Assembly (NCBI GenBank): GCA_010093605.1
Contig: MU004186.1
Coordinates: 972,616-1,036,615 of the forward strand
Length of the DNA: 64,000 nt
Direction: 5' to 3'
Origin: Lophium mytilinum
Taxonomy: Eukaryota
Shown here one piece after another: positions 4,519 through 26,386 of the stretch; position 1 is the first letter of the stretch; each line of letters opens with the position of its first letter. The notes under the pieces were generated by a model, which saw only the letters and a list, made by a program, of their open reading frames with translations, made no database searches and had not been told where the DNA came from. The position numbers were made by a program, and so were the translations under genes.

Positions 4519-4868
4519 CGAGTACTTCGATAAGAACACCGAAGGGGCTGATCAGAATACCAGCCGAGGTCATAGGACTCCGATATGGACACCGAAGGAG
4601 AGCTGATGAATGTACCAGTTGATTGACTCGGCAAAGCTGATACGACACCAGCGCGTGGACTTCGGTATAGTCACCGAAGATGTAGATACAAATACTAGCT
4701 GGGGCCTTGACCTCGTGAGGACTTCGATAGGAACACCGAAAGCTGATAGCACATCAGGGCGAGGACTACAATATGGTCACCGGAGGCGCTAAAGTATAAG
4801 CTGAGGCCATGAGCCTGTGATGAATTCGATAGGAACACCGAATGGGCTGATCAGAATACCAGCTGATG
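4519..4868. repeat. Degenerate tandem repeat array, ~6 units with core GACTTCGATA(G/T)GRWCACCGAA
   Basis: Units begin near 4519, 4574, 4656, 4718, 4762 and 4821. Units 1 and 6 share TTCGATA(A/G)GAACACCGAA(G/T)GGGCTGATCAGAATACCAGC. Confidence 0.6.
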
Positions 4869-6281: not shown

Positions 6282-7970
6282 CTACTTCGCCCCATAAGCT
6301 TTGACCTCTCTAATCGGCGTCATCTTGCACTTCAAGGGATGCTTCTGCCAAAGCGTATACACCTCCTGATCCGTCCAATCCTCGCACTCCGGCAGCATCT
6401 CGAGATCAAAATTCCAAAGAACCTTCGACAGGATGATGCGCATTTCGTGATAAGCTAAGCTAGATCGCCCCACCGTTAGCGGAAGCTCAACGCGTACAGA
6501 ACGGTGCACTTACTTCTTGCCGAGACAATTCCTCGGCCCGTATGAGAATGGCTGCAAAGCGAACTTGTCATCGGTTTCGAAGCGCTGGTCTCCAAGCCAG
6601 CGCTCAGGGATGAACGAGTTCGCGTCACGGAAGACCTTCTCGCAAGAGTACATGGCGAATTGAGACACGGAGACGACAGTCTTCTATCAGTCAGTCGCGA
6701 GCGAGAACTGGGTAGGCATGAAGCTTACACCTCCGGGGATCCAATCTCCACATATTGCTGCGCCCTGCGGTGGAACGAGTTGAGGTAGACCGACCGGAAC
6801 AGGTGGATACATACGCAACCCTTCCTCCATACAAGCTTGCAAATATGGTAGACGTTGAAGCCCTTCGATTGTGATTTCGGCGTCTGTCTTGAACGCGCTT
6901 CGAATTTCTTCGTTCAGCTTCTTGAGCACAGAAGGATGCTTCAGCAAGTAGTAGGTCAGGCCGCTGAGCAACGACGCAGTAGTCTCGGTCCCCGCAATCA
7001 TGAACACAGTCGCGTTGGCATACATCTCCCCTCGGGAGAGTCCTCGCCCTTCTTTCGCATTCAGGACTAGATTCCATATGTCAGGCTCGTTGGAACCTCG
7101 GTCAAGACGACGATCGACGCGGCTGGCGGAGTACTCGAAGTGCTTGACGCGCTTTGATTGGAAGGTATTGCCAGTAAGCCACTTCGCAAAGGCGTAGAGC
7201 CTCGGCCAGTAGCGGATGATCCCTATCTTTGAGCCAGTTCGTATGGATTGGAAGATATTCTTAACCCAGGGGACGTAGTCCGAGTTCGTGAGCAAGGAGA
7301 GTGGCTCGCCAAACGCCAGCTCGCTCATGATATCAAAGGTAGTAAAGTTGTACATGCGTACGAGATCACTAACTTGGTCCGGCGCCTCTCCCAGCTTCGA
7401 CACGAGCAGATCAGTATATCTTGCGAAGAGTGACTCCTGCAGCTTCAGCGCGCGGTCAGAGAACGCGTTAGAAAAGATGCGACGGGTCCGGGCGTGGTCA
7501 ACGTCGTTCGCAGAGATGATGGAGTGCACGTTGTTGATTGCTGGCACGAACCAGTCGGGATGCTTGATGATGTTTGGCTTGCCAGGCTTTTGGTGACCGT
7601 GGACGTCTTTCCACGCCTGCGAGCTGTTGAAGCTGAGTTCGTGTGGGGAGACGCGGACAACGTGGCCGTATTTCTCGTGAAGCTCGCAGACCATGGCGAC
7701 TTGCCTACCACGGTATATGTTCACCACATTTGGGATCTGAGTGATAGCGTGTAGCTTGGGGCCGGGGAAGTCCTTGAGGGGATGGAAGTAGAGGCGGTAG
7801 ACGGCAACTCCAAAGAAGCGAATAAGGATCTAAACGTTTAAGTTAGAATGATCAATCGAGGTTGGAAGAGAGTGAATCACGAATACTACGATACCAAGAA
7901 CTGCCCTACCAACTGTTAGGTTTCGTAGAAGATGCGAGGGAACGAAGAGAAGAGCGGATACGGTAGACAT
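6282..7970 (-). CDS. Cytochrome P450 monooxygenase (CYP65/Tri11-like group)
   Basis: Multi-exon. PLKDFPGP proline hinge, I-helix AGTETT, EGLR (ExxR), PERW, and heme motif PFSYGPRNCLG at ~6520-6552. Confidence 0.95.
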
Positions 7971-8830
7971 TGCGGGACTGGATCTATGAATCGCGATTGA
8001 TTGAGAGAACTGACACGAACACGGGAGGATGCCTTATCAAATACAAACATTGCAACGAGGAAGATATCAAGCAAGGCTTGCTTCGGGACTCTGTAGTGGC
8101 TCAGCCCCAATTCTTCGCTTTTAGGTCTGGAGATCCTGATCGCTAGAGAAAGAGGCGGTGACCGTCGACGCATTTGATCCACTATGGTGTATCTTACTTT
8201 AGAAGTGCCATAATTAGTACCTGTTCCTCCTTTCATTGGGTGCAGTCACTTACCTCAAGAGCTTCCGACGCTGCACCGAGTGTTGAGCCTCCATCACTGT
8301 GCACACCCCTCATGCTAGTGCGCATAAGAGATATACTCTGACACAGGTGTACAACAACACTGCGCGCTAGCTGCGGCGAGGAGGGTCAGACATGTAACTC
8401 TACGTGAGGCTGGATCGAGTTGTCAGATGTTAGCGCTATGCGTTAGATCGGAGCGGGGATAGATTCGATGAGGAAAGCATATCGATGCGGCCCTCAGTCA
8501 CAAGAGTGAGACTTTAGTGATGTACAGCTCACAACTCTAGCCGAAACATGAAATAGATTAAGCATTTTCTGAGTGCTTGATTCGAAGCTAAGAAGATCGT
8601 CGTCTCGAAGTAGCAATCGCTCATAGCAAAGTACCGACCCTAGCACCACGACCGGCGCTTTCTACCTACCTAAGGCCACACGTTTTGAAAGTTCAGTAGA
8701 CTACTTCGTATTTTTAGATCTTGTACCCAGGAAAGGTGATGTTCTCTCTTTTTCAGTCGGTAAAGGTCGGTAAGGGTAGAGCTACGATTTCTTCCTCGGA
8801 TTCTTGCGAAATACCCTCTCAACTCCCAAG

Positions 8831-9672
8831 CTACTTGAACTCAACGTAACCTTTGCCGTCGATGAACGTGTAGTCCCATGGTCCTTGCTCCGGATTCTCT
8901 GCAAGTTCGACATACATCTTTCCAGCGGCCGGGCCATTCACTGGAATTGTAGGGCCCCCATCAGGTTGTCTCTCATCAGCATAGTAGAATCTGGCCAGCG
9001 TTAGCACGATACTAATCTCTAGTATCAACTTGGGTGGTATGCACTCACTTAAAGCCCTTCCGCTTGTACCCAACACTGGCGGAACGGATCATGTGAGCGG
9101 CCGCAGACTTGGTCATTCCAAAAGTCAAAACATTTGGCAAGACAATTACGTTCAAGGCGTTTCCTGTCTGAATGAAAGTCCGCGATGCCGAGCTAGGTAG
9201 TTGCTTGAAGCCTTTGACGGCTTCTTGTGCGGCAAACAAGGGGCTAATCGAGTTGACTGCAAACTCGCTCTTTATGTCTTCGAGGGAGATTGAGGCGAGG
9301 GGGTCTTGCAAATCTCGCGGATTTCGCAGCGCGGCTGTTGTAGATGTCAGGACATGTGCTCTTCAAAAAGACGCGTTGTAAGAGACAGAGTAGCCTGGAG
9401 AGACGCGATGGGGATGAGAACGCGAAAGACGCACCATTATACACGACGACGTGCGGTATGCCTAATGATTCCGTCACTTTCGCGAACACCTTTTCGATCT
9501 CGGTTGTTTGTTCTAGATCGACCTGTACACGAAGGAATCCGTCTTCATCCACGCCATCTTGCAGACTTCTTGCTGCAATGGCGACCTTATATCCTTTCGC
9601 GGCGAATGCTTTGGCGACGGAGAGTCCAATCTTGGGACCAGCGCCAAGAACGAGAAGTACAGGAGTAGACAT
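8831..9672 (-). CDS. Short-chain dehydrogenase/reductase
   Basis: N-terminal Rossmann LGAGPKIG and VVVYN; FGMTKSAA occupies the YxxxK position (F for Y). ORFs 9244-9672, 9045-9311 and 8831-9076 are joined by introns. Confidence 0.9.
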
Positions 9673-10659
9673 GGCGAGAACAGTTACTGATTTAGTTCGA
9701 AGCTAAGGCAAAAGTTAAGAAACCGATGGCGAGAATGGTGAAAATGAAATAGCCGTGCGCGTGGCTTGCCTTTCTATCTCGGCCACCTCCCCCGTTGGAG
9801 CTATTCGGGCGTTCGAAGAGTCCGACGAGCGAGCGTGATACTGGCTGCTTAGAAATGCAGGGTCGCGACATCGTCAGATCTGGGAAGGAAATGCAACTTT
9901 ATTGGTCGACGCTGGAGACAACGACTAAGCTTTCGATCCTTAACTGCGAATGCCAGAACACTCGCAACGATACCCAGTCAAGTGCCAAGATATACGGAAC
10001 TTCCAGCTAGGTATAAGCTATACCCCTGCTATGGCTGCTGCGTCTAAGTGGCGGATAGCCCATGGGACCTGCATCGTTCAGTAATCATTTCTCAAGCTAA
10101 CGCCCTTCTACACCTTATGCAGAAGTAGGTCTACTCACTCGGCATTAGACCTAGAAATCGTCGCTTTTTCTACCGGGTCTTTCGGCCACGGAGAAACTCA
10201 CATCTATGTCCAACCTCGAACAGATATTGCAACTCGATGCCTCCTACCATAATCATGGACAAGGCCATCGCCGCAGGACAGATTGACCTGTCCAGACTGT
10301 TTGCTGGATTGGTAGTCTACACGGTGCGTCTACAGCCAGTCTCAGGGGCCATGAAAGAAATTTGGTGCGCATCTAATTTAGGAGGGTCGCCGCCAAAGTA
10401 AAGCTGACGGCTGGGAGGAGGCATCGAACCAAGGGCGATAAGAGAGAATTTGACCCTAGGCGATGCTAGATTACCCAAATGGAGTCCAGTAGGAAGCGAG
10501 ATGTAAAAAGCGAAAGTGTGATGAGAGAGCTGTGGACGCGATTCTTGCGAGCGTAGTGGCATCCTAAAGCGTGGGGTATTCTAAATTGCAGGGCATCTCG
10601 AACCTGCCCCTCTCTCACTTGGCAGCCAGCTCTTTCGTCGCTCCCCTCAAAACACTTAC

Positions 10660-10963
10660 CTATTCACGCGCACTCGGCCCTTCAATTCTTCCGCCTGCTT
10701 GACACCTCGCAGAATTGACACGTCGCCGCATTCCGCGCCACACGTGACCTCCCCCTTTTCACTTCCCTCCTCACCAATTCCATCCATTCACGCACGTCCG
10801 GCCCTTCAATCATCCGGCTGCTCGACACCTCGCAGAATCTACATATCACCGGAATCTGCGCACCACGTGATTCCCCAATGTTCCTCTCCATTCACCATCC
10901 ACCTTCTTGGGACTCTCCTCAAGCCGTCCATTCACGCATCCTCGGCCTTTCAGTTCCCCCGCC
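10660..10963. repeat. Imperfect tandem repeat, ~2.3 copies of a ~125-145 bp unit
   Basis: (C/T)ATTCACGC..CGGCCCTTCAAT..GACACCTCGCAGAAT..CACGTGA recurs at ~10660 and ~10784, with a partial third copy at ~10928. Confidence 0.7.
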
Positions 10964-11871
10964 ATACCTCCCTCTCCATGTCCCTCCGACTCTCTCTTGC
11001 ACTTTGAGACGAGTGCCCCTCACGGTTCCAAAAAAGATAATGCCGAAGCTGCCTAACGACCCTCTAAGCTTTTAATCTCGTCCTAGGGATTCACTGCTGG
11101 CAAATTGCTGAAATGACTTGGTCCCCAAATCGACGATTCGCCTCTTGGACCTCGACATTTGTATAGTGAAAGGTTTTCTTCAGCATGATCATGAAAGCGG
11201 GGTGGTAGATGGAGGGAAATGGCAATCGCCTCGTTATTCCGCGGATGTAAAGGCAGGAATGCTCTCCCAGCCTCATACATCTTTCCTTCAGTTGAATGAA
11301 GGAATCCATTTGCGCGCCTTGTCCTGCGATCTTCACCACCTTTACTACCAAGGTCTCGGCTAACTCAAAGCCGCCTTGTTGTCAGCAAGATGCGCTAGTC
11401 CGGGGCGCTGGATATGTCCTCTTCCGGTTAGCGCTATTCGGTTCCTCGCGCAGCATGGTTCAAATTTGAGCGGCGATGCGCGGTGTATTGGTACCTGATT
11501 TCTATGCCAGCTTTCTAACCTTCTTGGAGCCTCTCAGCCCCATCGGACATGATGATCTTCACGTCAGACTTGCACCCGGGCGCCAGATGCCTCCCAATTT
11601 GTCCGTATTGCGCAGTTGTCTATACGCGTATAAGCCGCCAAGCCTCAAAGTCGTCCACCCCACTCAAATCTTGACGGAGACCGTACCTGTATTCAGATCG
11701 AGTAGGTTATTTCTGCGTGGCAGGGCTGCGGGCTGACATGACCTCCGACGTCATTGTAGTTTAGATAGTCAAGGTCTGAAGGCTTCATTTCCAAGCTGAG
11801 AGATATAAGTATGGCCTTAGCCCTCACATCCCGAGCATCATACCTCCTCACAGTTGAAACACACACTCAAA

Positions 11872-13632
11872 ATGCGTCTCTCATTGCAAAGTCTTAGCAT
11901 TGTCTCATTATGTACCACGCGGGCCTACTCCACCCTCCTAGGACCCAGATATCCAGTTCCAACCGACTTGACCAGCGATGACAGCGTGGTCACCGCTGGG
12001 TGGAAGAATGTCACGTCGCTCTTCGACACATACCTCCACGGCGACCGATCGTCAATTCCAAACCCTCCCACCGGATTGGAAAACCTCACTTTCTCTATTG
12101 GCATGTTCTCTATCCATGATCCTGCTGCCCAATCTTTACAATACCACTACACGTCCAAAGAAGTCGAAACCGGTCCCGGCGTCCACAAAGTAGACGGCGA
12201 CAGTATCTACAAGGTTGCGAGCATCTCCAAACTCATCACAGTCTTCACGGCCATGCTGTCCTTTGACGTTGATCAGTGGGCACGCCCAATCACTGATTTT
12301 GTCCCCAGTCTCTCCAAGTCGGCTCTGGACAAAGTTGGACATGACCGCATTAGCCATACGCAGTGGGAGGACGTCTCTCTGCGTGCGCTTGCGGCTCAAA
12401 TTGCAGGAGTATCTGCTGCAGACCTGCCAGCGGGCGAGGATGCTGCCTTGGTCGTCGATACGACGACAGGCGTACCGCCTCTTAACCTAAGCGACCTAGA
12501 AGCCCTGTACCCTTGCTCGAAATATGCGAATCCTCTCGCAGATTGCCCTCCAGAGTTATGGTTTGAGGGTGAACTGGAACGCGCTCCAGCATTCGAGGCC
12601 TGGACGACTCCCGCGTATGCCAACAATGGATTCATGCTCCTTGGTATCGCCCTCGCGAACATTACCGGAAAGCCTCTCACTCAGGTGTATCGCGATCTAG
12701 TGTTTGATCCACTTGGAATGGCCCATTCGAGTGCTACTCCCCCGCCTGTATCAGAATTCTCCCAGTATGTTTCTCCTGGAAACACGACCGATATGACCCA
12801 GGGGGGCGGCTTTACCGTCTCCAGCGGTGGTCTCTTCCTCTCTTTGAACGACCTCGCAACATTCGGCACCGCCCTGTTGAACTCTACCCTCCTCCCTGCG
12901 AACAAAACCCGGGAGTGGATGAAGCCTATCTCTCACACGGCCGACCTGTCTTTCTCCGTCGGCGCGCCCTGGGAGATATACCGCTACACACACGCAAACT
13001 CGGGCGCCGTCACTGACATGTACACAAAAGCTGGCGACTCAGGCAACTTCACCGGTTACGCTGTGATGCTACCAGACTACGACGCAGGCTTCAACGTCAT
13101 CAGTGCGGGGAATCAGCAAGTAACCTCACTTCAGAAGAGTGTCCTGGCGCGGAAGATCGCCGATTTCATCACGGCTACGATGGTGCCCGCGCTCGAAGCG
13201 CAAGCTATTGCGGAAGTGAAGCGTAACTTCGCCGGGACATACGCCTCGAAGAACCCAGCTCTGAACTCCTCTTTGACACTCACGTTCAACGAATCATCTG
13301 AGGACCCCGGTTTGTACATGTCGTCATGGATTAGCAACGGGACCGATATGATTCCGGAGAATTGGTTTGGGGCATGGCCCGCCGTGACGCTGCAGCCGTC
13401 GACGAGGCAGCCGGGCCAGCAGGCGTTCAGGGCGATTGGCGTGGAGCCGAAGTTACCTCCTGGAGCTGGACCGTTTGCGACCATGTTCAATACGAATAGC
13501 TGGATTTCTGTCTATGTTAATGTGTATGGAGGAGAGGACATGGGGCTGTTTGTGTTTGATGTGGGGGCAGATGGGAGAGCCACGTCCGTGGAGCTTAGGG
13601 CTATCAAGGTGAAGTTGGAGCGAATAAATTAG
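11872..13632 (+). CDS. Secreted beta-lactamase/transpeptidase-fold serine hydrolase
   Basis: Signal-peptide-like N-terminus; SxxK (ASISK), YxN (YANN) and KAG motifs; intronless ORF. Confidence 0.92.
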   Translation: MRLSLQSLSIVSLCTTRAYSTLLGPRYPVPTDLTSDDSVVTAGWKNVTSLFDTYLHGDRSSIPNPPTGLENLTFSIGMFSIHDPAAQSLQYHYTSKEVETGPGVHKVDGDSIYKVASISKLITVFTAMLSFDVDQWARPITDFVPSLSKSALDKVGHDRISHTQWEDVSLRALAAQIAGVSAADLPAGEDAALVVDTTTGVPPLNLSDLEALYPCSKYANPLADCPPELWFEGELERAPAFEAWTTPAYANNGFMLLGIALANITGKPLTQVYRDLVFDPLGMAHSSATPPPVSEFSQYVSPGNTTDMTQGGGFTVSSGGLFLSLNDLATFGTALLNSTLLPANKTREWMKPISHTADLSFSVGAPWEIYRYTHANSGAVTDMYTKAGDSGNFTGYAVMLPDYDAGFNVISAGNQQVTSLQKSVLARKIADFITATMVPALEAQAIAEVKRNFAGTYASKNPALNSSLTLTFNESSEDPGLYMSSWISNGTDMIPENWFGAWPAVTLQPSTRQPGQQAFRAIGVEPKLPPGAGPFATMFNTNSWISVYVNVYGGEDMGLFVFDVGADGRATSVELRAIKVKLERIN

Positions 13633-13951
13633 GAAGTGAAGGGGTTGCAATGGCCATGATGGATTGTTTTAATACTGCGCATTGTGGCTGTCCTTGTTGC
13701 TTCGTTCTGGTACCTAGTTGCATAGATAGTAATTCGATGGAAAGTTGAGCTTCAAGCTGTATCACCACGGCCGTTTTATGTGTCGAGTCTTGACTTTTTA
13801 GGCGCACTATCGTCACGCCTCCTCAGAATATTGGCGAATAATGATAATCGTGCCTTCGCATGACAGAGCTGTGATGTTCGCGAAGGAAACTTGATGTTCC
13901 GCAAGCAACGATTCCACCCGGGCAAACGTCACACTACCTAAGTCGTAAAGG

Positions 13952-14001
13952 TGAACGTCGGCTTACGTGCCAAGGGTTGGTGGCGGGTTCTTGCATATAC
14001 G
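13952..14001. repeat. 50-bp perfect direct repeat, copy 1
   Basis: TGAACGTCGGCTTACGTGCCAAGGGTTGGTGGCGGGTTCTTGCATATACG, identical to 19648-19697. Confidence 0.97.
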
Positions 14002-14406
14002 TATACTATCATCCACTATGCTACGTATGGGGGCTATACTGTAAAAGCCGGAGTAGAAGCTATTTCTGAGGGGCACACGGATTACCTGGATTACTGTTCC
14101 TGAAATCGAACAACACCCACCCCCTTCAACAATGCTGCTATGACCACGAATACCAATACGAGCCGCCCCATTTACAGCTTTGAAACTATCTCGAAAAACG
14201 CCCTCAAACCTCTTGGTTACACGCGCGTTGACTACCACCTTTAAAGATCTAGATAGCTCCTTCGCCCTGAAACCTTCTACTCTTCTCTACCCGAACTCCT
14301 TCGAACCACCGGGAGAAACTAAAGTATTTGCATAGAGCAAATTAAGCTCTTGAGCTTGCGAAAGAGAAATGAGGAGAGAAAATATATGGTGTAGAGTCCA
14401 ATGGCA

Positions 14407-16476
14407 TCACTGCCTACTTGTAGTCGACGGTTCGGCGGTTATGATATCGTGAATTTTTCCTACACATGACTCTTAATCCTGCGTCAATAAGACTATTAGA
14501 TCCTTGCTCACTATTCAAGTTCAGTGTGTATGTCGTGATCGCCGATCCATACCTCGCTTCGACGAAGCCTTGCACATCGTAGTACAAGCGCCCGTTTGCG
14601 TGGCGTTTGATTTCGCATTTAATGAGCTCCGAGTGTGGTAAATAATCCAGATCGAAACTTAGATTCACCAAAACCGTAGTGTTAGAATTTCGATGGATTG
14701 GCGCGGTACTGTCACCGTCGTTTGCGAAGATCGTGCACTTTTGGACTTTTACGCCCTCCTGGATATCGGCGTAGACATGAAAGTCAATCTTGCAAGTTTG
14801 ATTTTCTTGAATTGAGTTGCCCTGTGAAACGCGTTATTTCTGTCGATCAGTACGGCTACCAGGATAAATAGTCTTCCCACCTTGTTAATGAACCACGTCA
14901 TCGCGTTAACCACATAACGTTGCCAATCCTTCTCCCACCATCTTGCGACAATCAGTATTGCCCAGGAGTTTGAGATTTTGAGCAGAGTTGCTTACGCTAT
15001 CCTACTATCGTGTCTCGAGTGTTCGAAGAGGGTCATCAACTCTACGCCGTAATGCTTCCGCGCGATCCGGCTTACGACACCAACCGTTCCTAATCCCCCA
15101 CTCGCCCTGCTGATTCCCATCATCGCTGCTCCTCGCACGACTGCTGTCCAGCCATCGGCAGGCTGCAGCACATAAATGGAGGAGGACACTGCGGCTTGAA
15201 CCCGGTTCTTCAAATACTCGCTCTGGCCAAATCCGCCAACCATGAGGATCGCACTCACGCCAGTGGAAATACTAGAAAGTTGTTCTTTGACCAAGTTGAT
15301 TATATCTTGGATAATGGGTTCAAATATTCTCGACTGCATCTCCTCTTGGCTCATCGTGTACCTGTTTCTTCGAACGCCGAGCTCGACGTTCGTATCCATT
15401 TCGACGCGGAGGGTCAAGGGCTCGCCGCTTGGTTTGAATGTCTTCTTGAACTAAATCGTCATTATCAGGAAAATTTTTCAATTTAAATGTGGAGCACGTA
15501 CCAGTTCAAAGTCTTCGTTCGCTTCTGTGAGCCGCTCATCAGTCCAGTAGTCGTTGCCGAAATGGGACTTAAGATGGCTTTGGAAGTTTTTATTGAGCAT
15601 GGATGAGCCGCACATGGCACCTGTCCCTGCCGTAGCCTCCATACTGTCCAGTCGTGGGTGTACCTGGACTACAGTGTACGAAATCAAGTCCACTGTACCG
15701 CCACGAGCATCGCACACTGTGACGCTATTTCCGATTCCTAATTTGGAAAGCTGAGGTTATGAAGGGTATAGCGGGCGGCAGCTTCCTACAGCAAGGTCAG
15801 TACTGAATTTCTTCTTATTGAATAAGAAAGCTGGCCTACTGGTTCTGTGACTACATTCGTCGGGTTGATAGGCCTAAATCCAGCGTTTTCGGCAGCCGTA
15901 AGGGTCTTGTGCTTCGCGGCTTCAGACCATATTGCTGGCACTGTCAAGATGTAGTCAATCGGAGTACTCTTTACAACAGAAGAGGTGAGGCGGCTGTTCA
16001 GCATGTACATCAGGTGGGCATGCATGTGTTTCATGTAACGTTCCGTAAGGTTCTCCGTAGAAAAGCCGTCGGTGGTTACCCCAATCTCAAGGTTCCTAAA
16101 ATCCTGGTCAACTGCATCCATGTAGGGCAGCCTGACTGAGCGTACAGCTTGAAGTATTTGATCTTCTTCGCCGTGTTCGGAATCTGGAACCCCCACTGCC
16201 ATCTCGTATAAGTATCACGCAACTCTGTTGGTACCTTCGGGCTAGTCGTCCATTCCTGCAAGCTATTTGGCCAATGATGGATGACGTTTTGGTAGTCTGG
16301 CTACGATTTCTGTAAGCTTTTGCTCAGGTAGAGGTTGCTAGTATCCGTACGTGTGTTGTTTCAGCCCACGCAAGACCGGAATATGTGGTCCCGAAATCGA
16401 TGGCAACAATTAGCTTTCGCGGATGCGAATTTCCTCCGAGGCTTAGATTCTGGAAGGTATTCTCCATCCCCGCCAT
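14407..16476 (-). CDS. Atypical Hsp70/actin-like ATPase (HSPA12-like); one frameshift, so pseudogene or sequence error
   Basis: IVAIDFGTTYSG, LTVPAIWS, TEP|EAAA, CDARGGTVD (usually DAGGGTVD), LMVGGFGQSEYL, AVVRGA, ARKHYG. About 8 exons. A 1-nt deletion at ~15740 gives an in-frame TAG. Confidence 0.9.
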
Positions 16477-17515
16477 TATCTACAAATGGTTCCTAGGATA
16501 TGTAAAGCGAAGATTGGAGAGCTTGGTGTTCGTCCGAAGAGGATCTTCTGCCTATGCGAAGCATTCAACCCAGGCTTTAAGTCCACAACCGTGGCTCAGG
16601 GTTTCAGTCTACGGCCCCTTTGCGCATTCTGGGATTAGAGTGCGGGGAACTGAAGGGCAAGTGACGGTATTGGAAATGCTGAGAGATATTTCGTTGGCCG
16701 TAACAGCCTTTGCAGGGTTAAGAATCCTTTCTTATGCACTGTGGACGAGACACACTTCCACAAGAAGCGCAATGACGTTGTATGATGGATTTGTTAGCCC
16801 AAGGTATCAGTCTCTCGTGTACTCGTTCAAAATCGCTGCTGGTGTTCGGGCGGACTACACACGCATTGCGTCTCCACCCCTGCTCGTTCGTGGCTGTTTG
16901 CGATAGGTTCGTGATGCAGGATGTTAGCAGCACGTTGGGCCGTTTCTAGGCAGACATTCAGCGAATCAAAACGTTCTCTTGGTTGCAGGACGAGGCAGCA
17001 TCGCATATGCAGCTTCTGAATTAGGCCATTTCCGGAGACCAGCCGTGCGCCCTGCGAACGGTGAACTACCCCAGATTTGAAGCCAGGATGGAAATGGTGG
17101 CCTTGAAGCGGAAGAAGCCCTTTTCTGGACCATATCTTGACGAGGCTGAGACTATCGGCAAAGTCGGCTTCCGCTTCTAGTGCACATGCGCCTCCAAATC
17201 AGTCGTGAGCGTATGAAATATACATGGCACCCGCGACACCAGGACGTTCGGGCAACAAGATATACCGAAATCATTGCAAGGGGCGACGTAGCCCGGTAGA
17301 AGTGAGTCACGAGTCCATATTCTGCGTCCGACCTGGACGCAAAAGAGTCCGCGCAGCTAGTGCTTTTAGTCTCATCAATATTATCTGCCCATGGAGCCTT
17401 CCTCGATGTATTGCTTTTAAACTAGAATGTTCATAATCTACAAGTGACGCAGGTCTGGAGAGCCCTAGCTGATCTCCTTAGAATTCCTCTTACAACCTCG
17501 GCGAGAAAGCAAACA

Positions 17516-18777
17516 ATGGACGACAGAGCGGACACACTGGACGAAAAGCTGAACAAGCTGGAGCACACTTGCAAAGCTCTGCAAGATAGCCTCATGATTC
17601 GTGACAGGACGATCACTACACGCAACGCAGATATCAAGAAGCTCGAAGCAGAACTCCGCGCAGCGAACAGAAGAACTGCTGAATTACAGCGCCAATTGAA
17701 AGACCGGCAGGCTCACGAAAAGGAAACTGAACGAGACCTTAACGAGGCACGTGATCATATCTTCCGACTTCAACCACGACGTCGATCAATAACGGAGACC
17801 GAAGCGCAAGAAGCGTTTCAGAATCTTGTTTCCTCAGTCCAACGATGGGTTGAGAACCGTTTAAACACCATCCTAGATGACCTGGACAGTGACGTCTTGG
17901 ATGCGCGACGATGCGACCCTAAGCTAGCAGAGCGATTCTTGAGCCTGACCCGCCCGAGAGCAGAGAAGTACTTTACTTGCGCCGATGCGGACGAGTTCCA
18001 TGTTACTGCTGCTATCATGCAGTATCTTTGTCAGCATTTCTTCGACAAAGATTTCTATGCTCCGTTAGATGATGGACTAGTTGATGGCAAAGGTACTTTG
18101 AAGCTCATCGAAGAGATTGGAATAAGCATGCGCCAACTTCCCAGAGGTAAATGACCACCAAATTATGAGGGTATCCCAAGCTAACGTTCAGCCCAGAAAT
18201 CTCTCAATGCAGATCTTGGAGAAGCGAGACACTAGCAGCTCTCGTCCGTCAACCGGAGTTCGACAAACGGCGCTCAGCATATCTAGAAAACCACACCAAT
18301 ACCCTAACCCAGCTGCTGACTGTGGTGGTTACGGGCACAAGTGCAAGAGGGCTGCCTGAGTCCGTCTGGAACAGCATGATTAAGCCAGCCATGGAATTGG
18401 CACACGAGCTGCAGCTGTCAACCGATATGTTCTCCGTCAAATGGACACCGATTAATTCGGCCAATGGACAGACTGACTACGAGAAACAAGACGACCTTGG
18501 GAAGTACATATGTGTGAACGTGCTACAATTCGGTAAAGTCCTCAAGTTGCCGCGAGGCCAGTCCTCACCTGATGAGACGCGGATCATGTACTTATTCGAT
18601 ATTTGCCCGGGCCTGTTTTGTCAGAGCGTCAAGGATGATTCTCACCCCCCAGAGAGAATCCTTTGCAAGCCAAGGGTGCTGGTGGCTGCTTCGGAAGGTA
18701 AGCAGAAGCTTGCACCGAAAGGTCCTACGGTCATGGAGTGGATACTCGATGCAACCAAGGACGGCATGGCCGTGTAA
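17516..18777 (+). CDS. Coiled-coil protein divergently paired with the Hsp70-like gene; C-terminus GrpE-like by eye
   Basis: N-terminal heptad coiled coil; intron ~18147-18196; WRSETL motif; C-terminal ICPGLF..ERILCKPRVLV. Start codon uncertain. Confidence 0.8.
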
Positions 18778-19647
18778 CCTTATGATAGATTGTATGTCTT
18801 TTGAGAAGCTATATCAAAGGATGAAGTTTTATCGGAAGCGATATCACCCATGCTGCATGCAACTACAAGTCAAATCGGTTCATCATTCTGGCGAGTAAAG
18901 ATTGGTCCGACTAAACTTTAGGAAAGCGATGAAGGGTAGAAAGAGGAAACAAATCTCAGCCTTGTTGCCTACGAGGCTGAATGTTCACACCTTTGACTCG
19001 TCAGCCGCACCATCTCGCAGGGATCATGCAACCCGCGCATGACCCATCTGCCAAACTGTATCACAGCTCAAGTTATCACATCTATAGCTCGATTCATGGG
19101 CCAATGCGTCTTGTGAACGCTGCGAAACAAACAGCTTCATGGCCCTGCAAAAGCTACCATTGGAATATCGTCCGGAAGACCTTTCTCTCAACCGCCTTCT
19201 TTTGGCCGAAATGGTTCGCAGCGTCTGTAACCAGGCGCTTTAGGGATCGGACGGTACCCTCGGGCAGGCTGAATATATTCTCCCGCAGTTCATCGGTCTC
19301 CTTTTCGTTCCGCGTTTGACTGCCCTGTTCAGCCTTGTCTCTCCGAAAGCATCACCTTGCGCTTCTTTCTTCTTCCTCTCCATCATAGCACATGACTCGG
19401 CACAGTAGTTCCAACTTCGGCGTGGAATTCGAGTCTATCGTGAGACCAGATGCCAATCGCCAGTCCTGTACCGAGAGCGAGGGGTACAGAAATTGGTCGA
19501 CAAACTCACAAACCGGCACATACCCACTGTGGCCGACAACCTAACGTCTTCTTATCGTAAGCATCCAGAGTATCAAGGCAGGAGGTGGTTCATCGCCGGG
19601 GACGGCTCATAGTAGATCAAGCGCGAAGGTCTTCGTAAAGTGAAGGA

Positions 19648-19697
19648 TGAACGTCGGCTTACGTGCCAAGGGTTGGTGGCGGGTTCTTGCATATACG
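19648..19697. repeat. 50-bp perfect direct repeat, copy 2
   Basis: Identical to 13952-14001; both copies are also preceded by TCGTAAAG. Confidence 0.97.
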
Positions 19698-20052: not shown

Positions 20053-20784
20053 ATGTCCTCCGCAACCGCCGTCCCCCTCGCCCAATACCCAAAAACCATG
20101 GACCCTTTCTCAGATCCAACCACCGCACACACCCCAACCGACACCGACACCTCACCCTCCCAACAAATATACTCTCCGACATCTGGCGCCCACAGCACCT
20201 ACCTAATCGACTTCTCCTGGGGCAAGTTCAAATCCCTCATCACGGACAAAAACGACCCGGCCTCCACCCCCCTCTACATCGTGAACTACAAAGCCTTCTC
20301 CCCCAACCTCGTCTTCAAATCCGCCGCCACAGACACCGTCCTCGGCACCGGCACCATCCACGCCATCTCCATCAACGCCAAATGCACCGTGCACGACCGC
20401 CCCATCAAGCTCAAGGCCCTGAAACACTTCGAAACTTCCTACGAGCACCAATCCCTCGCGTTCTCGGACACGGATCAGCCGGTGCCGATGACGTGGACGG
20501 GTAGCCTGGGGCTGAGGACGTGGGACTTCGTGTGTCTGGATGAGGCGCAGATGCCGGTTGCGAAGTGTGTGATTAATAATTGGGGGATTACGCGGGTGGG
20601 GTGGATTGAGTTTCTGGGGGAGAGGGCGGCGGAGAGTGAGAAGGCGCGGGAGGAGATTATGGTGACGGGGATCACGTTGATGTATTGTATGGCGCTGCGG
20701 TTTAGTAACTTTTTTTCGTTGTTTGGGGCTGTGTTTGCAAGGCCAGGGAGGGAGAAGGATGCGACGAAGACGCATGCGGAGTGA
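20053..20784 (+). CDS. Conserved fungal hypothetical protein, probable LURP/tubby-like beta-barrel
   Basis: 243-aa intronless ORF with strong codon bias; beta-strand-rich with MTWTG..FVCLDE..PVA..G.IE and a terminal hydrophobic helix (EEIMVTG). Confidence 0.75.
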   Translation: MSSATAVPLAQYPKTMDPFSDPTTAHTPTDTDTSPSQQIYSPTSGAHSTYLIDFSWGKFKSLITDKNDPASTPLYIVNYKAFSPNLVFKSAATDTVLGTGTIHAISINAKCTVHDRPIKLKALKHFETSYEHQSLAFSDTDQPVPMTWTGSLGLRTWDFVCLDEAQMPVAKCVINNWGITRVGWIEFLGERAAESEKAREEIMVTGITLMYCMALRFSNFFSLFGAVFARPGREKDATKTHAE

Positions 20785-21921
20785 GGGTTTGGACGCGGAG
20801 GGTATCTGGCTTTTGGTACGAGGAGTCGTGGTGTTCTATGGCTTTTATAGGAGGTTCATGACAATTTCCAGGTTATATTTGCCGGTGTTTGAGGTAGGCT
20901 GCGAGGGTTACGCGGGCTTCAGATAGTTCAAGATCGTGATATTGCATCGCTCATGATTTGCGAAAGTGCATTGAAGCATTGCAAGAGTCTTGCACAAGCA
21001 CGTAGACTAGAAGAAAAGATACCCTCTCTTACAAGGCTCGAACTACGACTCTCTCCCAAGTCTCTTAGACTCCACAGTCTTTGACGTAGCCATCTATGAC
21101 TTCTAGCCTTACCCTCGAGGCATTAGATAGTGACGAGTTTGAGCGACATGAGGACGGCAAATATGTTGTGCTTGTGAAGGCCTTCTAAAACTGCTCTTCG
21201 GGAAGCGCAAGCTCACACGTCCAAGATCCAATCCGAAAGTGGAGAATCGACATTGAGGTCGGAGCTTTTCGTTTTTGGAGAGTTTGATTCAGATTCGCGA
21301 AGAGAAAAGGCCTATCTTCTCAGAGTTTGATATCGGATGTAAAGGGTGGTAATACTGACATTGAGATCCGGGCTCCCACAACCGTCTAGATTTCTCCTGA
21401 TATTTTTTGAAGGAGGAGCGATCCGTTCCACGGTGGACATAGCGGAGATGATTGGTTACGGTTCTACTCGGATGATACGTGACTTAATGCTATGAAGGAT
21501 ACCTAGTGATACATTATCGCTGAGTTCTTGCTCGACTTAGACTGCTCGGACTTGAAGATTTGCGTTGTTGATATGTCACGTCTTTGTGTCTCTGATCAAA
21601 GACCTTGGTTGAGAGTCCTGTTTCACGCTATCATGACACTACACCAGACTTCAAATTGGCGAAATGAAAATTTGAGAAAGACGGATTTGGTTGATTCAAA
21701 TAGGAAAGTCGAAGGCTTCTCTGCTCTCCGCGACTATGGCGATAAGAACTTCAACCCACGCCGATGATGTAGCCTCCATTCAAGTCCATGTGACCCAGCT
21801 GATTCTCATCGCAAGAACGCCCATGGGTATACTGATAGGCCTGACCCTCTAGCCTCTTCGATCCATCTTCAGAAACAGCCCCCTGGCTACAACACCGTCG
21901 AGCGAATGAGATAAGCCGGAT

Positions 21922-22392
21922 TCAACCAGCAAGCTTCTCGAGATCGTCATCGCCAACAAGAACGCGGCACTTGGGGCACTGAGGGTGACCGAACTTCTTC
22001 GTATCCTGGTAGAACTCGCTCAAGCAGAATTTGCCAAAGACATGGCCGCAGTTGAGCAGCATGAAGGGACGATGATTGACGCCTCGTTCCTGCGCAAGGC
22101 CCTTGGGATGGTCGTAATCCTTTCGGCAGATGTAGCATTTGCTCTGTGAATCTTCGGAGGATACGTCGACAGTGCTGGCTTCGCCCCCGAAGTAGTTGTC
22201 GTCAAAATCACCCTCATCGAAATCGAACATGTCGTCATCATCAGACTGCTCCATGTCCTCGTCAGAGTCGATGAGCACGGGCTGCGATCGGTTGCCGGAT
22301 GGTTCGCCGTTCTTGGAGTTGGTCGAGGCAGAGGTCTGGCCTTGGCGGGCGGCTCCGGCGGGGGTCTGAGCGCGACGGACGGGGTTCGACAT
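21922..22392 (-). CDS. Small RING-finger protein (putative E3 ligase, possible SUMO-interacting motifs)
   Basis: CYIC..CGHVFGKFC..CPKC RING pattern at the C-terminus; PVLIDSDED and TVDVSSED hydrophobic+acidic motifs. Confidence 0.85.
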   Translation of the reverse strand: MSNPVRRAQTPAGAARQGQTSASTNSKNGEPSGNRSQPVLIDSDEDMEQSDDDDMFDFDEGDFDDNYFGGEASTVDVSSEDSQSKCYICRKDYDHPKGLAQERGVNHRPFMLLNCGHVFGKFCLSEFYQDTKKFGHPQCPKCRVLVGDDDLEKLAG

Positions 22393-24142
22393 GGCGGTCA
22401 AGGCGGGGGCGCTGGTGTTTGTTGGTTGATGTGATTCTGGTAGTGGTTATGAAGGGTGTGGTTGGAATAGTTCCAGTGGTGTCGTGGGAAAGAAGCTAGA
22501 TTTCATGAGCCTGCGATTCTCGACCTGTGAATCTAGAGGAAGCTGGGCTTTCACGATTTCCCGCTCTGTTGCGACCGCAGCTCGGTGGTCCACTCAAATC
22601 CTCGGTGAAAGCTGGATCGTTTTGGAAGTTCATCCACAATCACGTGCCTCGATAGTGACTAGCACCCAACAGAAGACAAGTGGTCGATGTGCGTGCTGTA
22701 ATTGACGTGGATGGTGATGCAGAGAAGAGGGAGAAAGTGAGGAAGGTGAGGTTGTTAGGGCACGGCTGACGGTACGTAGCCTTCACCATTCCACTCAGGT
22801 GGCGCGTGAGTGAAAAGCAAAAGCGGTGGGAGCGGTCCGCATTGAAGATGAGCCTCTTCCCAAGATCTTTAGCCATCGCAGCCGTGAGATTTGGAGTGAA
22901 TGACACGACTGAGACTGTTCCAGTGAGCTTTGTTGAACTTCATGGGGTAGAAACAACGAAAAGGGTTGGGAGCTGGACAACGAAAAATAGTCATCGGCGC
23001 GATGCAAATATGGCATGTTGAACGTATCTTCAAGGAGTAACCCGCATGATGAAATGGATACTCAGCATCGGTTTTCATTGGCGAGCTGATGTGGGTTATC
23101 TATCATCACGTGATGGTCCAAGGGATCGCTGAGGAGCCGAGACGTCGCGGTAGGGTTAATAGACAAGCCGGGAACAATCGGCAAGCTGCAACAAATTGGT
23201 GGCGCTGACAATTCGCATCTGACAGCTGAAGCTAGGCATGGGCACAGCGGTGGCTAACAGGACCTTGCTATGAGGTGATCGTCCGGTGCTATTATGAGAG
23301 TTTGTGGTGTTGAGGGGTGCGTCTTCAGGTCCTTTCTCCTGATCCCACGCACTGGCACGCTGTAGGAACCCGCTGGTGCATTCATCGTACAAAAGGTTGT
23401 TTCTTCGGTTGATGCTGGATCGTTGGCCCCATTCGCGGTGTTTCTGTTGCTGCAGTGCACAGGGAGGTGTGAGGCATGGGAGGCTGGTGGTGGTGATGCC
23501 GATCCTCTTAGCCCCTGAGGAAATCGTTCCAAGCTTCGGCAACTCCCAACGCTGGGCTCCATCGAGTTAGACGACAGCAATCGTTATCAAGCGCCCGGGC
23601 CGTTGCGACGGCTCTCCGTGGTTCAGCGCTGGAGACAACTCCACCAACCCATACGGCCTTACGACGCTTCCTTGCAAAACAATATTCAACGCTTCTCGGC
23701 CAGCAAACAGCAGCACGCCGGCGACATGTCCGGACGCGGGGTCCCTTGCACGACCAGGAAACGGCCGCCCTGAAGTCCCACATACCCCTCGCGCGTTGGG
23801 ACCTGCTTGACGTCTTCTACCCACGGCACAGCACTCGACCCATGCCGATCACCTATGAGACGAGCCACTATCAGATGTAAATTCAGATCGGCCGCCAGAA
23901 GTGCCTCATCAGACCGCTGCCGGGGTGGTGGACTACTGCTCTGGGAGCTTGACGTCCCCATCCATCCATGCTGCCGTTTTCTGGGACGGCCCATGTCCAG
24001 AAGGCTCTCGAGCTGCGCGAGCTGCGTGTAAATAGATACCGGTCTTGTCTGTCGATTGTGGTTCTCCGCTTGTCCTGCGTTTTTCTTCTCTGTACCAGAT
24101 TTGCTGTCCGATTTGCCGTCTGATTTGCACTGTACCGCCGCC

Positions 24143-26386
24143 ATGCCTACCGAATCCACATATCCAACCATCGATATCCCCGGCCTCGATCTCTGGGACT
24201 TCCTTTTTAATCGCAAAGACAAGGCTTTCCCGGATGACAAGGGTAAACCATCCACTTTTCTGGCCTTCGTTGGTACGCCAGCTCACACGACCACCCAACA
24301 GTCATTTACCGCGATCCCGAAACCTCCCGCTTCTACACCTATGCCCAAACCCGCGATGCAGCCATCACTTTCGGCAGAGGCCTCAGAGCCCAGTGGCGCT
24401 GGAAGAAGGGTGACGTCCTCGCATTGTACACTCCCAATTGCATCGACACTCCTGCTGTGACATGGGGACTGCATTGGGCCGGTGGCATCCTGACGCCTGC
24501 GAATCCTGGCTATACTGTCGATGAATTGGCGTTCCAGCTGCACGACTCGAAAGCGAGTGCTATTGTCACTCAGAAACCTTTTCTCAAGCAGGCATGTGCA
24601 GCAGCGAGAAAGGCCGGCATATCGGAAACGCGGGTCATCTTGATGGGTGACGAGCGTGACGAGACCGGTCGCTTCAAGCACTTCACGGACATCAGGTGCA
24701 CCAGGGGCATGAGTCGGTATCGAAAGTGCAAGATCGATCCCAAGAAGGACTTGGCATTCTTGGTCTACAGCTCTGGTACCACAGGGTGAGTTGCTTTTTA
24801 GAACCTAATACGTCTATGCTTGAGCTTCTCGTGGTACTGTGCAGGCACCGCAATTGCGGATTGGCCTTCCGAAAGTTTTGACGAGCCTGCGCGGTTGCTG
24901 ATTTGATTTATTCCAACACAGACTCCCCAAAGGCGTCATGCTCTCGCACGAGAACATAGTCGCGAATACCATGATGAATCAAGTTGGCGAGGGAAAGAAC
25001 CTTAGCTGGACAGGTGGATTCAACAATGGCGGGGATAAAATCCTAGCGTTCATCCCGTTCTTTCATATATACGTAAGACTACTCCTACTTTTCCCTTTGC
25101 TCTTGCAAGTCTATGTACGGGTCATCTATAGTCCAATTGCTAACAAAGTACTAGGGCCTAACCTGCCTAATCCACCACAGCCTCTACTCCGGCCTCGAGC
25201 TTGTCGTCATGGCCAAATTTGACCTCGACCGCTTCTGCCTCCACGTTCAAACTCACAAAATCACCTACACCTACGCTGTACCCCCCGTGATCCTCATGCT
25301 CGGCAAGTCCCCTGTTGTCGACAAATACGACCTTTCTAGTCTACGTATGCTCAAATCGGGGGCTGCTCCGTTGACAAAAGACCTCACGGACGCCGTCTAT
25401 AGACGTCTCGGGATCCCCATCAAGCAGGGCTACGGCCTCAGCGAGACCAGTCCTACCACGCATACGCAACGGTGGGAGGACTGGCACGTGCACATTGGCT
25501 CGGTGGGGAGGCTGCTGCCCAACCAGACGGCGAAGTATATCGATGATTTTGAGATTGAAGTACCGTTTGGGGAGACTGGTGAACTCTGCATCAAAGGGCC
25601 GAACGTTTTCCAAGGGTATCTCAACAATCCAGGCAGCACAAAGAACGCTTTCACTCGCGATGGCTACTTCAAGACCGGGGATGTTGGACACCAGGACACA
25701 GAGGGGAACTTCTACATCACCGACCGTGTCAAGGAACTCATCAAATACAAAGGCTTTCAAGTCCCGCCCGCTGAACTGGAAGGCATCCTTCTTGGTAACG
25801 AGGACGTCGAGGACGTGGCTGTGATTGGTATCTACGAGGAAGAGCGCGCGACCGAGGTATGCTCCGTTCCCTCTTGACGCCCTTCATTCAACCTAACAAC
25901 AGCCAGGTCCCCCGCGCCTACATCGTCCCCAAAGCCTCCCTACCCCCTTCCCCAGAAAGCGCCACCCGCATTAGCGACTGGCTGACCGCGCGCGTCGCGA
26001 ATCACAAACGCCTGCGCGGCGGCGTACGCTTCGTCTCCGAAATCCCAAAATCCACCTCTGGTAAAATCCTCCGGCGCGTGCTGAAAGACAGCCACGCCAA
26101 GGAAATCGAATCCGCGTTGTCCCAAAACAAGAAAGTTAACATGAATTTGGAACGATACCTGGAGCCAGCAGATGGGACGAGGTTGCGCAGTAGCAGTGTA
26201 ACGGTGAGACCGACACCGAGGCCGGTGTACGGAAGGCTGAGGAGCAGTTCCTTGGTCGTGCGACGGACGACGCAGAGCGTGGCTGGCCCCACCCCGACTG
26301 GGAGGGTCCAGGGCGAGTTGGCCGCAATGAAGTTGGAAAGAAGTAGGAGTTTGGCTGCTAGAAGGCCGGCTTTGGTTGAGACTTGA
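24143..26386 (+). CDS. Acyl-CoA ligase, 4-coumarate/phenylacetyl-CoA ligase family
   Basis: YSSGTTG|LPKG AMP-binding motif, QGYGLSET, FKTGD, DRVKELIKYKG, IPKSTSGKILRR; several introns. Confidence 0.95.

Follow-up and report, generated by a model that had tools for sequence, protein, structure and literature searches.

A perfect 50-bp direct repeat around an Hsp70-like/coiled-coil gene pair in Lophium mytilinum: a candidate for recombinase-free relocation with long target duplication

Introduction

Insertion with long target duplication was reportedly described by Nobusato et al. in 2000. As set out by Furuta et al. in 2010 (PMC2853133), the insert is < 20 kb and the repeat > 30 bp. The locus studied here resembles the examples given there, which have repeats of 44 to 46 bp: an insert of 5,646 bp, holding no mobility gene, lies within a 50-bp repeat. 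Unlike ours, the cases in that report are bacterial, carry restriction-modification genes, and are defined by an empty-site allele. The Lophium cassette comes from a fungus and carries an Hsp70-like gene plus a coiled-coil gene, with no nuclease, and no empty allele was seen. It works like the long-target-duplication class, yet it is not a restriction-modification case.

A mechanism and a size range for duplicating the DNA between nicks come from mouse cells, in which 46-nt staggered breaks led to such duplications (Schimmel et al. 2017, PMC5730883). The breaks described there were engineered and the duplications mostly adjacent, whereas here a putatively captured 5.6-kb block separates the copies. 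In Arabidopsis, for 13 of 18 transposed genes with repeats > 30 bp, the orthologous target site also contained the repeat (Woodhouse et al. 2010, PMC2869330). Like the Lophium pair, these genes are non-syntenic, lie between direct repeats of at least 30 bp of non-transposon DNA, and often lack a donor. They differ in that A. lyrata served for a check of the target site, and in the explanation preferred by the authors, circle excision and homologous reinsertion; that the Lophium 50-mer is found nowhere else argues against such reinsertion here. In Starships, too, direct repeats enclose a cargo of fungal genes (Urquhart et al. 2023, PMC10104507), but, as described there, these elements have a captain tyrosine recombinase along with short repeats and terminal inverted repeats; we found none of these in Lophium.

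Insertions with long target duplications are described for bacteria and plants. A literature search for fungal examples matched only a Helicobacter paper, and a broader one listed nothing on the subject by title or start of abstract, so the literature searched may lack a proven case from fungi. Lophium mytilinum is a conifer-bark fungus, and its locus is a clean single-locus candidate for ordinary fungal genes changing address without a transposon.

Results

The window analyzed is a stretch of 64,000 nucleotides of the L. mytilinum genome, an assignment borne out by a named protein matching at 100%; the features of interest are listed in Table 1. Direct comparison of the two 50-mers, which had been predicted to be identical, gave 50/50 identity, and the bracketed block, put at about 5.65 kb, measures 5,646 bp between the copies. 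The left copy starts 319 bp past the stop codon of the left flanking gene, and the right copy ends 355 bp ahead of the ATG of the right flanking gene. In the 43-Mb genome (G000), only these two copies exist with up to 3 mismatches allowed, and no third match was found at E values up to 10. About 1e-15 pairs of identical 50-mers would be expected by chance. A common dispersed repeat, as considered in the original prediction, was rejected on these searches. We also surveyed 662 kb of the genome for exact repeats of at least 30 nt spaced 0.5 to 30 kb apart. The 50-mer was the sole short isolated perfect pair in this sample; the remaining exact repeats were all parts of longer AT-rich, LTR-like repeat pairs or of microsatellites. 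No tRNA and no Rfam match at E up to 1 was found in the repeat, and the fold z (0.49 and 0.70) gave no sign of a tRNA/5S or other RNA-gene integration site. The repeat is most likely a scar of DNA repair without function.

Table 1. Features of the cassette and its surroundings (window coordinates)
Feature	Position	Strand	Remarks
Left flanking gene, beta-lactamase/transpeptidase-like, outside cassette	11872..13632	+	PF00144 E 2.2e-23; homologue span
TCGTAAAG left of copy 1	13943..13950	+	1-nt gap; imperfect repeat extension or microhomology
50-bp direct repeat, left copy	13952..14001	+	Identical to right copy; 2 copies in genome
Hsp70-like actin-fold ATPase gene, probably pseudogene (NCBI BU16DRAFT_606211)	14414..16467	-	PF00012 E 1.6e-7
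Old MITE-like relic, family A, ~170 bp, terminal inverted repeats, TA flanks	16610..16787	+	nhmmer E 1.8e-24
Old MITE-like relic, family B (partial)	17053..17162	+	70-83% local matches
Coiled-coil partner gene, 403 aa, one intron, open frame (BU16DRAFT_606214)	17516..18777	+	100% match to P0001
Unspliced RNA contig, no recognizable ORF	19003..19631	.	Run X3, depth 6.2, no gaps
Second MITE family A relic, partial	19099..19169	-	nhmmer E 2.1e-8
TCGTAAAG left of copy 2	19633..19640	+	7-nt gap
50-bp direct repeat, right copy	19648..19697	+	Identical to left copy
Right flanking gene, 243 aa, no Pfam family, outside cassette	20053..20784	+	M. resinicola homologue

Read-derived contigs were obtained from two runs of one sample, possibly the source of the assembly itself. 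In these contigs the 50-mer forms a separate node with depths of 258 and 381, and its neighbors have depths of 128 to 144 and 164 to 176, respectively. At twice the depth of its flanks, the repeat is therefore not an assembly duplication, which counts against the misassembly considered in the original prediction; contigs of 31 letters cannot prove the linear order of cassette and flanks. Excision through the repeats had also been proposed. It is possible in principle, but the cassette has the same depth as the flanks, with no sign of an excised or amplified fraction. The same sequence was carried by all three runs listed, in which no empty allele was seen. An apparent empty site in run X3 (43% of words) was rejected, as this is an RNA-like run with the same sequence and spliced joints. 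No RNA data set was listed as holding the sequence, and run X3 has no contig over 13806-16475; we drew no conclusion on expression from either. Scans of metagenomes were blank for both the repeat and the partner family, and no look-alike turned up among the scanned genomes.

The two genes of the cassette are arranged head-to-head. The match of the Hsp70-like gene to PF00012 lies above the cut-off, and the gene has 157 homologues. Comparison with five homologues revealed a frame switch caused by a 1-nt frameshift near 15750. In the DAGGGT phosphate loop, R replaces G; of the 103 motifs found among 119 homologues, none has this R. A probable 8-nt tandem duplication lies at 14424-14439. With neither the frame nor the loop intact, the gene is probably a decayed pseudogene, judging from its sequence. 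A supposed broken intron of 14 nt was rejected; the intron is a normal one of 50 nt. No Pfam family was found for the partner protein. Its structure model (pLDDT 66.8, with the C-terminal part below 50) predicts an N-terminal coiled coil, and fold searches returned coiled coils only, over residues 1-90; GrpE was not listed, and the C-terminal model is poor. No second copy of the partner or of the cassette ends was found in the genome, and a search of the incompatibility literature yielded nothing specific on the Hsp70-like/partner pair.

We examined the age and origin of the enclosed DNA. Of the degenerate relics noted in the original prediction, those that could be verified are MITE remnants and not protein genes. 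Family A has 19 matches in the genome, and the relic at 16610..16787 is 70% identical to the column majority; family B has 40 match rows at 31 candidate places. The copies in the cassette are as diverged as the remainder of their genome-wide families, so the enclosed DNA is old in the lineage and not a fresh foreign arrival. In a tree of 27 selected Hsp70 rows with a midpoint root, the Lophium gene forms a long basal branch within a mixed-class clade, which is spread patchily across fungal classes. Recent horizontal transfer was rejected, since the closest Hsp70 homologues reach 53-61% only, the branch is long and basal, and there is no donor. By its old, genome-native MITE relics, the block is a long-time resident and thus probably relocated inside the lineage rather than a recent horizontal gain. 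A locus with both MITE families side by side (C19) was rejected as a donor site, as it had no further similarity. RIP indices in the cassette are near background, with one borderline window (0.93/0.98 at 14001-15000), and speak against duplication and subsequent loss of kilobase segments. The GC content is 49% in the cassette and 52-53% in the flanks.

The absence of mobility functions held up on closer inspection. Neither the two genes nor 12 stop-free fragments gave a Pfam match to a transposase or recombinase, including the Starship captain tyrosine recombinase (DUF3435), for which no suitably sized ORF exists in the cassette either. The best inverted match inside the repeats was equalled by 311 of 1,000 random pairs, so no terminal inverted repeat is indicated. 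LTR retrotransposons and TRIMs have an outer target duplication of 4-6 bp and gag/pol or a primer-binding site. A 44-nt part of the repeat reads TG..CA, yet we found no short outer target duplication at the cassette (2-10 bp, either choice of ends), no gag/pol, and, by eye, no tRNA-type primer site. Most likely, the repeats do not delimit an active mobile element. If the cassette were non-autonomous and mobilized in trans, with the 50-mer as the site of a recombinase, the perfect identity of the repeats and the patchy spread of the Hsp70 clade would be explained, and a Starship recombinase is described as able to act in trans (PMC10104507). Given that there is no third copy, no terminal inverted repeat, no short outer duplication, and no excised or amplified fraction in read depth, we regard this as barely credible. 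Moreover, 0 of 4 paralogous Hsp70-like loci, at 20 kb each, had bracketing repeats, and none had the partner gene.

Gene order in relatives, for which matches to the window genes were checked, indicated that two separately conserved neighborhoods are interleaved at this locus. The flank homologues carry consecutive locus tags, on one contig in Rusavskia elegans (Q9199_004801/2), and likewise in Xanthoria sp. 1 (L6R42_005241/2) and Xanthoria sp. 2 (L6R38_001394/5); the inner pair is missing between them in all three lichen fungi. In Cadophora malorum, one gene separates the flank homologues (IFR04_001468/1466). Adjacency is inferred here from locus tags only, and the three lichen fungi belong to one family, which makes two lineages. 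Conversely, the Hsp70-like/partner pair is linked without the Lophium flanks in Delitschia (KAF2199489/KAF2199491, same 50,526-bp contig). The right flanking gene is 76% identical to Mytilinidion resinicola BDZ99DRAFT_467653. This species was missing from the 10 partner matches and from the 120 of 157 Hsp70 matches listed, in word-seeded protein searches with many unnamed rows; a check of 15 of 150 representatives identified no orthologue of the left flanking gene for it. The repeats lie in the spacers on either side of the inner conserved neighborhood, which supports insertion. The original prediction of a recent insertion is therefore supported as to the insertion, and as to recency for the repeat alone (at most about 6% divergence), but not for the DNA that it encloses.

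These results led us to favor, with a probability of about 0.42, a one-off, recombinase-free relocation of the gene pair with long target duplication. A staggered break with two nicks about 50-60 bp apart would have formed in the spacer between the beta-lactamase-like and 243-aa genes. The break would have captured a 5.65-kb piece with the Hsp70-like/partner pair, from elsewhere in the genome of the lineage, and its overhangs, once filled in, would have left the 50 bp separating the nicks in two copies. Later the donor copy would have been lost, and the Hsp70-like gene would have decayed. Long target duplication, one of two routes proposed originally, thus becomes the leading candidate mechanism; as the 50-mer is not a dispersed repeat, the other, homology-based circle integration, is unlikely.

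The flanks also bear on whether the repeat belongs to the arrival of the pair at all. In Xanthoria sp. 1, the one relative whose orientation was checked, the beta-lactamase-like model keeps its N terminus and is cut at its C terminus on a 6.8-kb contig, so its neighbor lies on the 5' side, versus the 3' side in Lophium. Given this mismatch in orientation, the exact junction need not be ancestral, and the Lophium order could also stem from a single old inversion. An older inversion or rearrangement could accordingly have set the gene order, with a later repair event copying 50 bp across 5.7 kb. The MITE relics, which point to old residence, and the time that the Hsp70-like gene had for its lesions agree with this account. 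We nevertheless consider it quite unlikely: the copies fall in exactly the two spacers bounding the pair, isolated perfect repeats are rare (1 in 662 kb), and no inverted duplication marks an inversion breakpoint.

We compared the DNA beside the two copies. Each had been said to be preceded by the same sequence; this is true of TCGTAAAG itself, but its offset is 1 nt in one case and 7 nt in the other. Leftward similarity modestly exceeds chance, with 30/1500 and 13/1500 control stretches scoring equally under two gap settings, and there is no rightward similarity (327/1500 and 1500/1500, same settings). Plain target duplication leaves unexplained why the right end of the cassette is similar to the DNA on the left of copy 1 (p about 0.01-0.02). 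Nor does it explain the exon-like content of the repeat beside a transcript. The minus-strand reading ATG-QEPATNPWH-GTAAGC is correct, as predicted; 21 of 1,279 50-mers of the window are equally exon-like. No coding signal or family match lies behind either copy, and the RNA contig beside copy 2 is unspliced where a first exon would require an intron. A duplicated first exon is thus one possible reading of the repeat.

Both anomalies, together with the adjacent RNA contig, are accounted for if the pair was inserted about 0.7-0.9 kb to the left of copy 2 and copy 1 is templated filler. Copy 2 would be native along with 19003-19647; they may represent the first exon and the remnants of a small minus-strand gene with a promoter in common with the 243-aa gene. 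The broken left end would have primed on the imperfect TCGTAAAG match, copied 50 nt, and switched to the incoming DNA, placing the true right junction near 18.8-19.0 kb. The single gene between the flank homologues in Cadophora fits this scheme, and alternative end joining in mammals and plants is described as giving rise to templated insertions (PMC9684475). In 19003-19647, however, we found no coding signal or family match, the RNA contig gave no Pfam match above noise, and it runs unspliced across the expected intron. Templates of such insertions usually lie much nearer to the break. We hold the filler account to be rather unlikely.

The one-sided extension would also follow if the block was released from its donor site in circular form and a little over one turn of it was copied into the break, with the 50-mer belonging to the incoming DNA and TCGTAAAG serving as invasion microhomology. 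Circle-mediated gene movement has been proposed for Arabidopsis (PMC2869330), and both genes are whole in extent with non-coding DNA on either side. No internal circle junction, permuted order, or donor scar could be shown, and we judge this course improbable. An apparent truncated gene at 14132-14335, resembling a mitochondrial presequence, failed as support: 35 of 2,165 ATGs pass the same filter, and no genome, Atlas, or Pfam support was found. A 107-aa minus-strand ORF at 13963-14286 was likewise rejected, with no support found, Pfam included.

Discussion

Relocation with long target duplication, as favored here, is a single event with half-dead cargo and teaches little on the role of the gene pair. 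A bolder proposal, which we consider very improbable, takes the Hsp70-like/partner pair for a fungal module that moves time and again, makes long, variable target duplications on insertion, can pop out cleanly by way of these, and lacks a recombinase of its own. If true, this would be a fungal counterpart of the bacterial restriction-modification insertions and would lead to presence/absence alleles like those of allorecognition or defense loci. The four models predict four different empty alleles; removal in silico of the cassette plus one repeat gives a spacer of 724 bp.

A perfect repeat encloses the Hsp70-like gene and its partner

We compared the two 50-mers and found them identical at 50 of 50 positions, which bounds their pairwise divergence at about 5.8%; as originally predicted, they enclose the gene pair, with 5,646 bp between them. 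The suggestion that the 50-mer is a dispersed repeat failed, as the whole 43.4-Mb, 49-contig Lophium genome contains these two copies only. No tRNA or Rfam match and no stable fold were found for the repeat. Other exact repeats of at least 30 nt at 0.5- to 30-kb spacing, in a 662-kb genome sample, all belonged to microsatellites or to longer AT-rich pairs (260 bp at 96% and 202 bp at 93%). The locus is real and unusual within the Lophium genome. Separately, AT-rich nested LTR-like pairs, 93 to 96% identical, occur on contigs C6 (about 828-852 kb; L072-L074) and C4 (about 782-790 kb), with spacings of 5.3 and 7.7 kb.

Features of the locus and paralogous loci in the Lophium genome
Feature	Position	Strand	Description
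Beta-lactamase-like (left flanking) gene	11872..13632	+	319 bp from repeat
Repeat copy 1	13952-14001		50 bp
Hsp70-like gene	14414..16467	-	PF00012; BU16DRAFT_606211
Family A relic, full copy	16610-16787		about 170 bp, terminal inverted repeats, TA flanks; 19 genome matches
Family B relic	17053-17162		partial; family of about 220 bp, 40 match rows, about 31 places in genome
Partner gene	17516..18777	+	403 aa
RNA contig	19003-19631		unspliced; depth 6.2
Family A relic	19099-19169
Repeat copy 2	19648-19697		50 bp
Right flanking gene	20053..20784	+	243 aa; 355 bp from repeat
Paralogous Hsp70-like genes	C6:1114 kb, C12:293 kb, C12:1260 kb, C14:974 kb		33-37% over piece searched, more distant

In read-derived contigs, the 50-mer formed a separate node with depths of 258 and 381 in two runs from one sample, which may be the source of the assembly itself. 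The left flank, cassette and right flank had depths of 128, 136 and 144 in one run and 164, 167 and 169 in the other. Therefore, the reads contain two copies of the 50-mer and one of the cassette, contrary to a misassembly. The equal depth of cassette and flanks argues against a sizeable excised fraction, although a linear order and a circle plus an empty site look alike in short-word contigs. An over-copied circle is a quite improbable source of the repeat.

The sequence TCGTAAAG was confirmed ahead of both copies, but its offset differs (1 nt for copy 1, 7 nt for copy 2). Leftward similarity beyond the repeat was equalled by 30/1500 and 13/1500 controls, and rightward similarity by 327/1500 and 1500/1500.

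The Hsp70-like gene, head-to-head with the partner gene, switches frame near 15750 when aligned to five homologues; a splice in the public model sidesteps this frameshift and loses the EAAA motif. In its DAGGGT loop, R replaces G, a change seen in 0 of 103 motifs from 119 homologues. An 8-nt imperfect tandem duplication (14424-14439) has probably shifted the last codons. The gene deviates at 18 of 107 otherwise invariant columns, 7 of them in the mis-spliced part; eight of ten homologues showed 0 to 3 deviations in the same test, and the other two 11 and 13. Read contigs showed no differences at the lesion sites, and therefore the lesions are not consensus errors. The partner protein, identical to BU16DRAFT_606214 of Lophium mytilinum, deviates at 6 of 71 such columns (range of nine homologues, 0 to 13). 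It matched no Pfam family and starts with a long coiled coil; a low-confidence model gave no confirmation of a GrpE-like tail. Elsewhere in the window, an NACHT/NPHP3_N-domain (NLR-like) gene occupies several frames (28680-31524).

Two conserved neighbourhoods are interleaved

In three lichens of one family, Rusavskia elegans, Xanthoria sp. 1 and Xanthoria sp. 2, homologues of the flanking genes share a contig and have locus tags that directly follow each other. They lie one gene apart in Cadophora malorum, and in one further record both match contigs of 28,150 bp. The matches were verified; the adjacencies in the named species were read from locus tags, not DNA. In Delitschia, the Hsp70-like/partner pair is linked, with one gene model in between. 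In Lophium, therefore, one conserved neighbourhood sits within another that is conserved independently of it, and the repeats lie in the two spacers at their boundary. Among the matches listed, the nearest homologues of the cassette genes were 44 to 61% identical and dispersed across classes. Mytilinidion resinicola has the right flanking gene at 76% and is absent from the 10 partner matches and from the 120 of 157 Hsp70 matches listed.

The cut beta-lactamase-like model of Xanthoria sp. 1 still has its N-terminus, so that the neighbour falls on the 5′ side of this gene, unlike in Lophium. An old inversion could account for the present gene order; however, it leaves the direct repeat at 13952 unexplained.

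The interleaving favours the predicted insertion; its recency applies to the repeat alone, not to the inserted DNA. Within the cassette lie three relics from two families of dispersed palindromic elements (170 to 220 bp, TA flanks), both of which we take to be MITE-like. The full family A copy in the cassette is 70% identical to the column majority, and the 18 other copies are 68 to 82%. These old, putatively native elements indicate that the DNA was in the lineage long before the perfect 50-bp duplication. Searches of the Lophium genome for the partner and for the cassette ends found each of them once, and at the four paralogous Hsp70-like loci neither a partner nor bracketing repeats were found. 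Relocation followed by loss of the donor copy fits a single-copy cassette with old relics; such loss is expected for half or more of gene moves, according to an excerpt of Woodhouse et al. (PMC2869330).

Family A (L028-L045) is old throughout (68 to 86% alike), with two copies facing each other 420 bp apart at C3:2.676 Mb. Family B (L047-L061) adjoins a family A copy in the cassette and at C19:894 kb.

Possible origin of the repeat

In agreement with the original prediction, domain scans detected no recombinase or transposase domain in the cassette, and its ends showed no terminal inverted repeat. They also lacked a short outer duplication; an element mobilised in trans is very unlikely. The most economical account, to which we assign a probability of roughly 0.4, is capture of the cassette in a staggered chromosome break. 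Fill-in of about 50-nt overhangs would have left the repeat on both sides, the predicted empty allele would have a 724-bp spacer, and the leftward similarity would be junction error or chance. Sections of PMC5730883 and PMC2853133 describe, respectively, such fill-in and a matching insertion pattern. The repeat likely arose when the gene pair arrived, while later copying of 50 bp, unrelated to that arrival, is improbable. Very likely, the repeat is a passive scar, probably left by one act of DNA repair around the gene pair, which is decaying.

Alternatively, copy 2 and 19003-19647 would be native and copy 1 templated filler, with the leftward similarity as priming microhomology. This rather doubtful explanation accounts for that similarity and agrees with the exon-like content of the 50-mer (equalled by 21 of 1279 window 50-mers) and with the RNA contig, which ends 16 bases before copy 2. 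However, the contig is unspliced, and its region holds no recognisable ORF or coding signal. The same observations divide over the proposed duplicated first exon: the exon-like content agrees with it; the adjoining transcript, unspliced where the intron is expected, does not.

Staggered-break capture can be set beside known systems. The Lophium cassette works like an insertion with long target duplication and resembles this class in size and in lacking a mobility gene. The class is defined by an empty allele, here only predicted, and carries restriction-modification cargo, which the cassette lacks. A literature search for "long target duplication" and "fungi" matched Helicobacter work and no fungal case. 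Excerpts of PMC9684475 and PMC11628664 describe fungal breaks that acquired large insertions and genes that moved in Neurospora; the Lophium-type repeat pattern is absent from the cases in those excerpts. A Starship, judged by the features in part of PMC10104507, and an LTR element were both rejected.

The cassette is surrounded by P450, short-chain dehydrogenase, beta-lactamase-like, 243-aa unknown, RING and AMP-binding genes (6687-13632 and 20053-26386), possibly a metabolic cluster that it interrupts. Two clusters of degenerate 30- to 87-bp direct repeats, spaced 100 to 165 bp, lie at 4526-4866 and, upstream of the beta-lactamase-like gene, at 10656-10952. A perfect 15-bp tandem array lies within a long ORF (37822-37956). 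Two matched proteins (P0149 and P0165; CL912_29055 and CL912_29080) assigned to a "Deltaproteobacteria bacterium" MAG match Cadophora malorum proteins exactly or almost exactly, which makes fungal contamination of that MAG probable.
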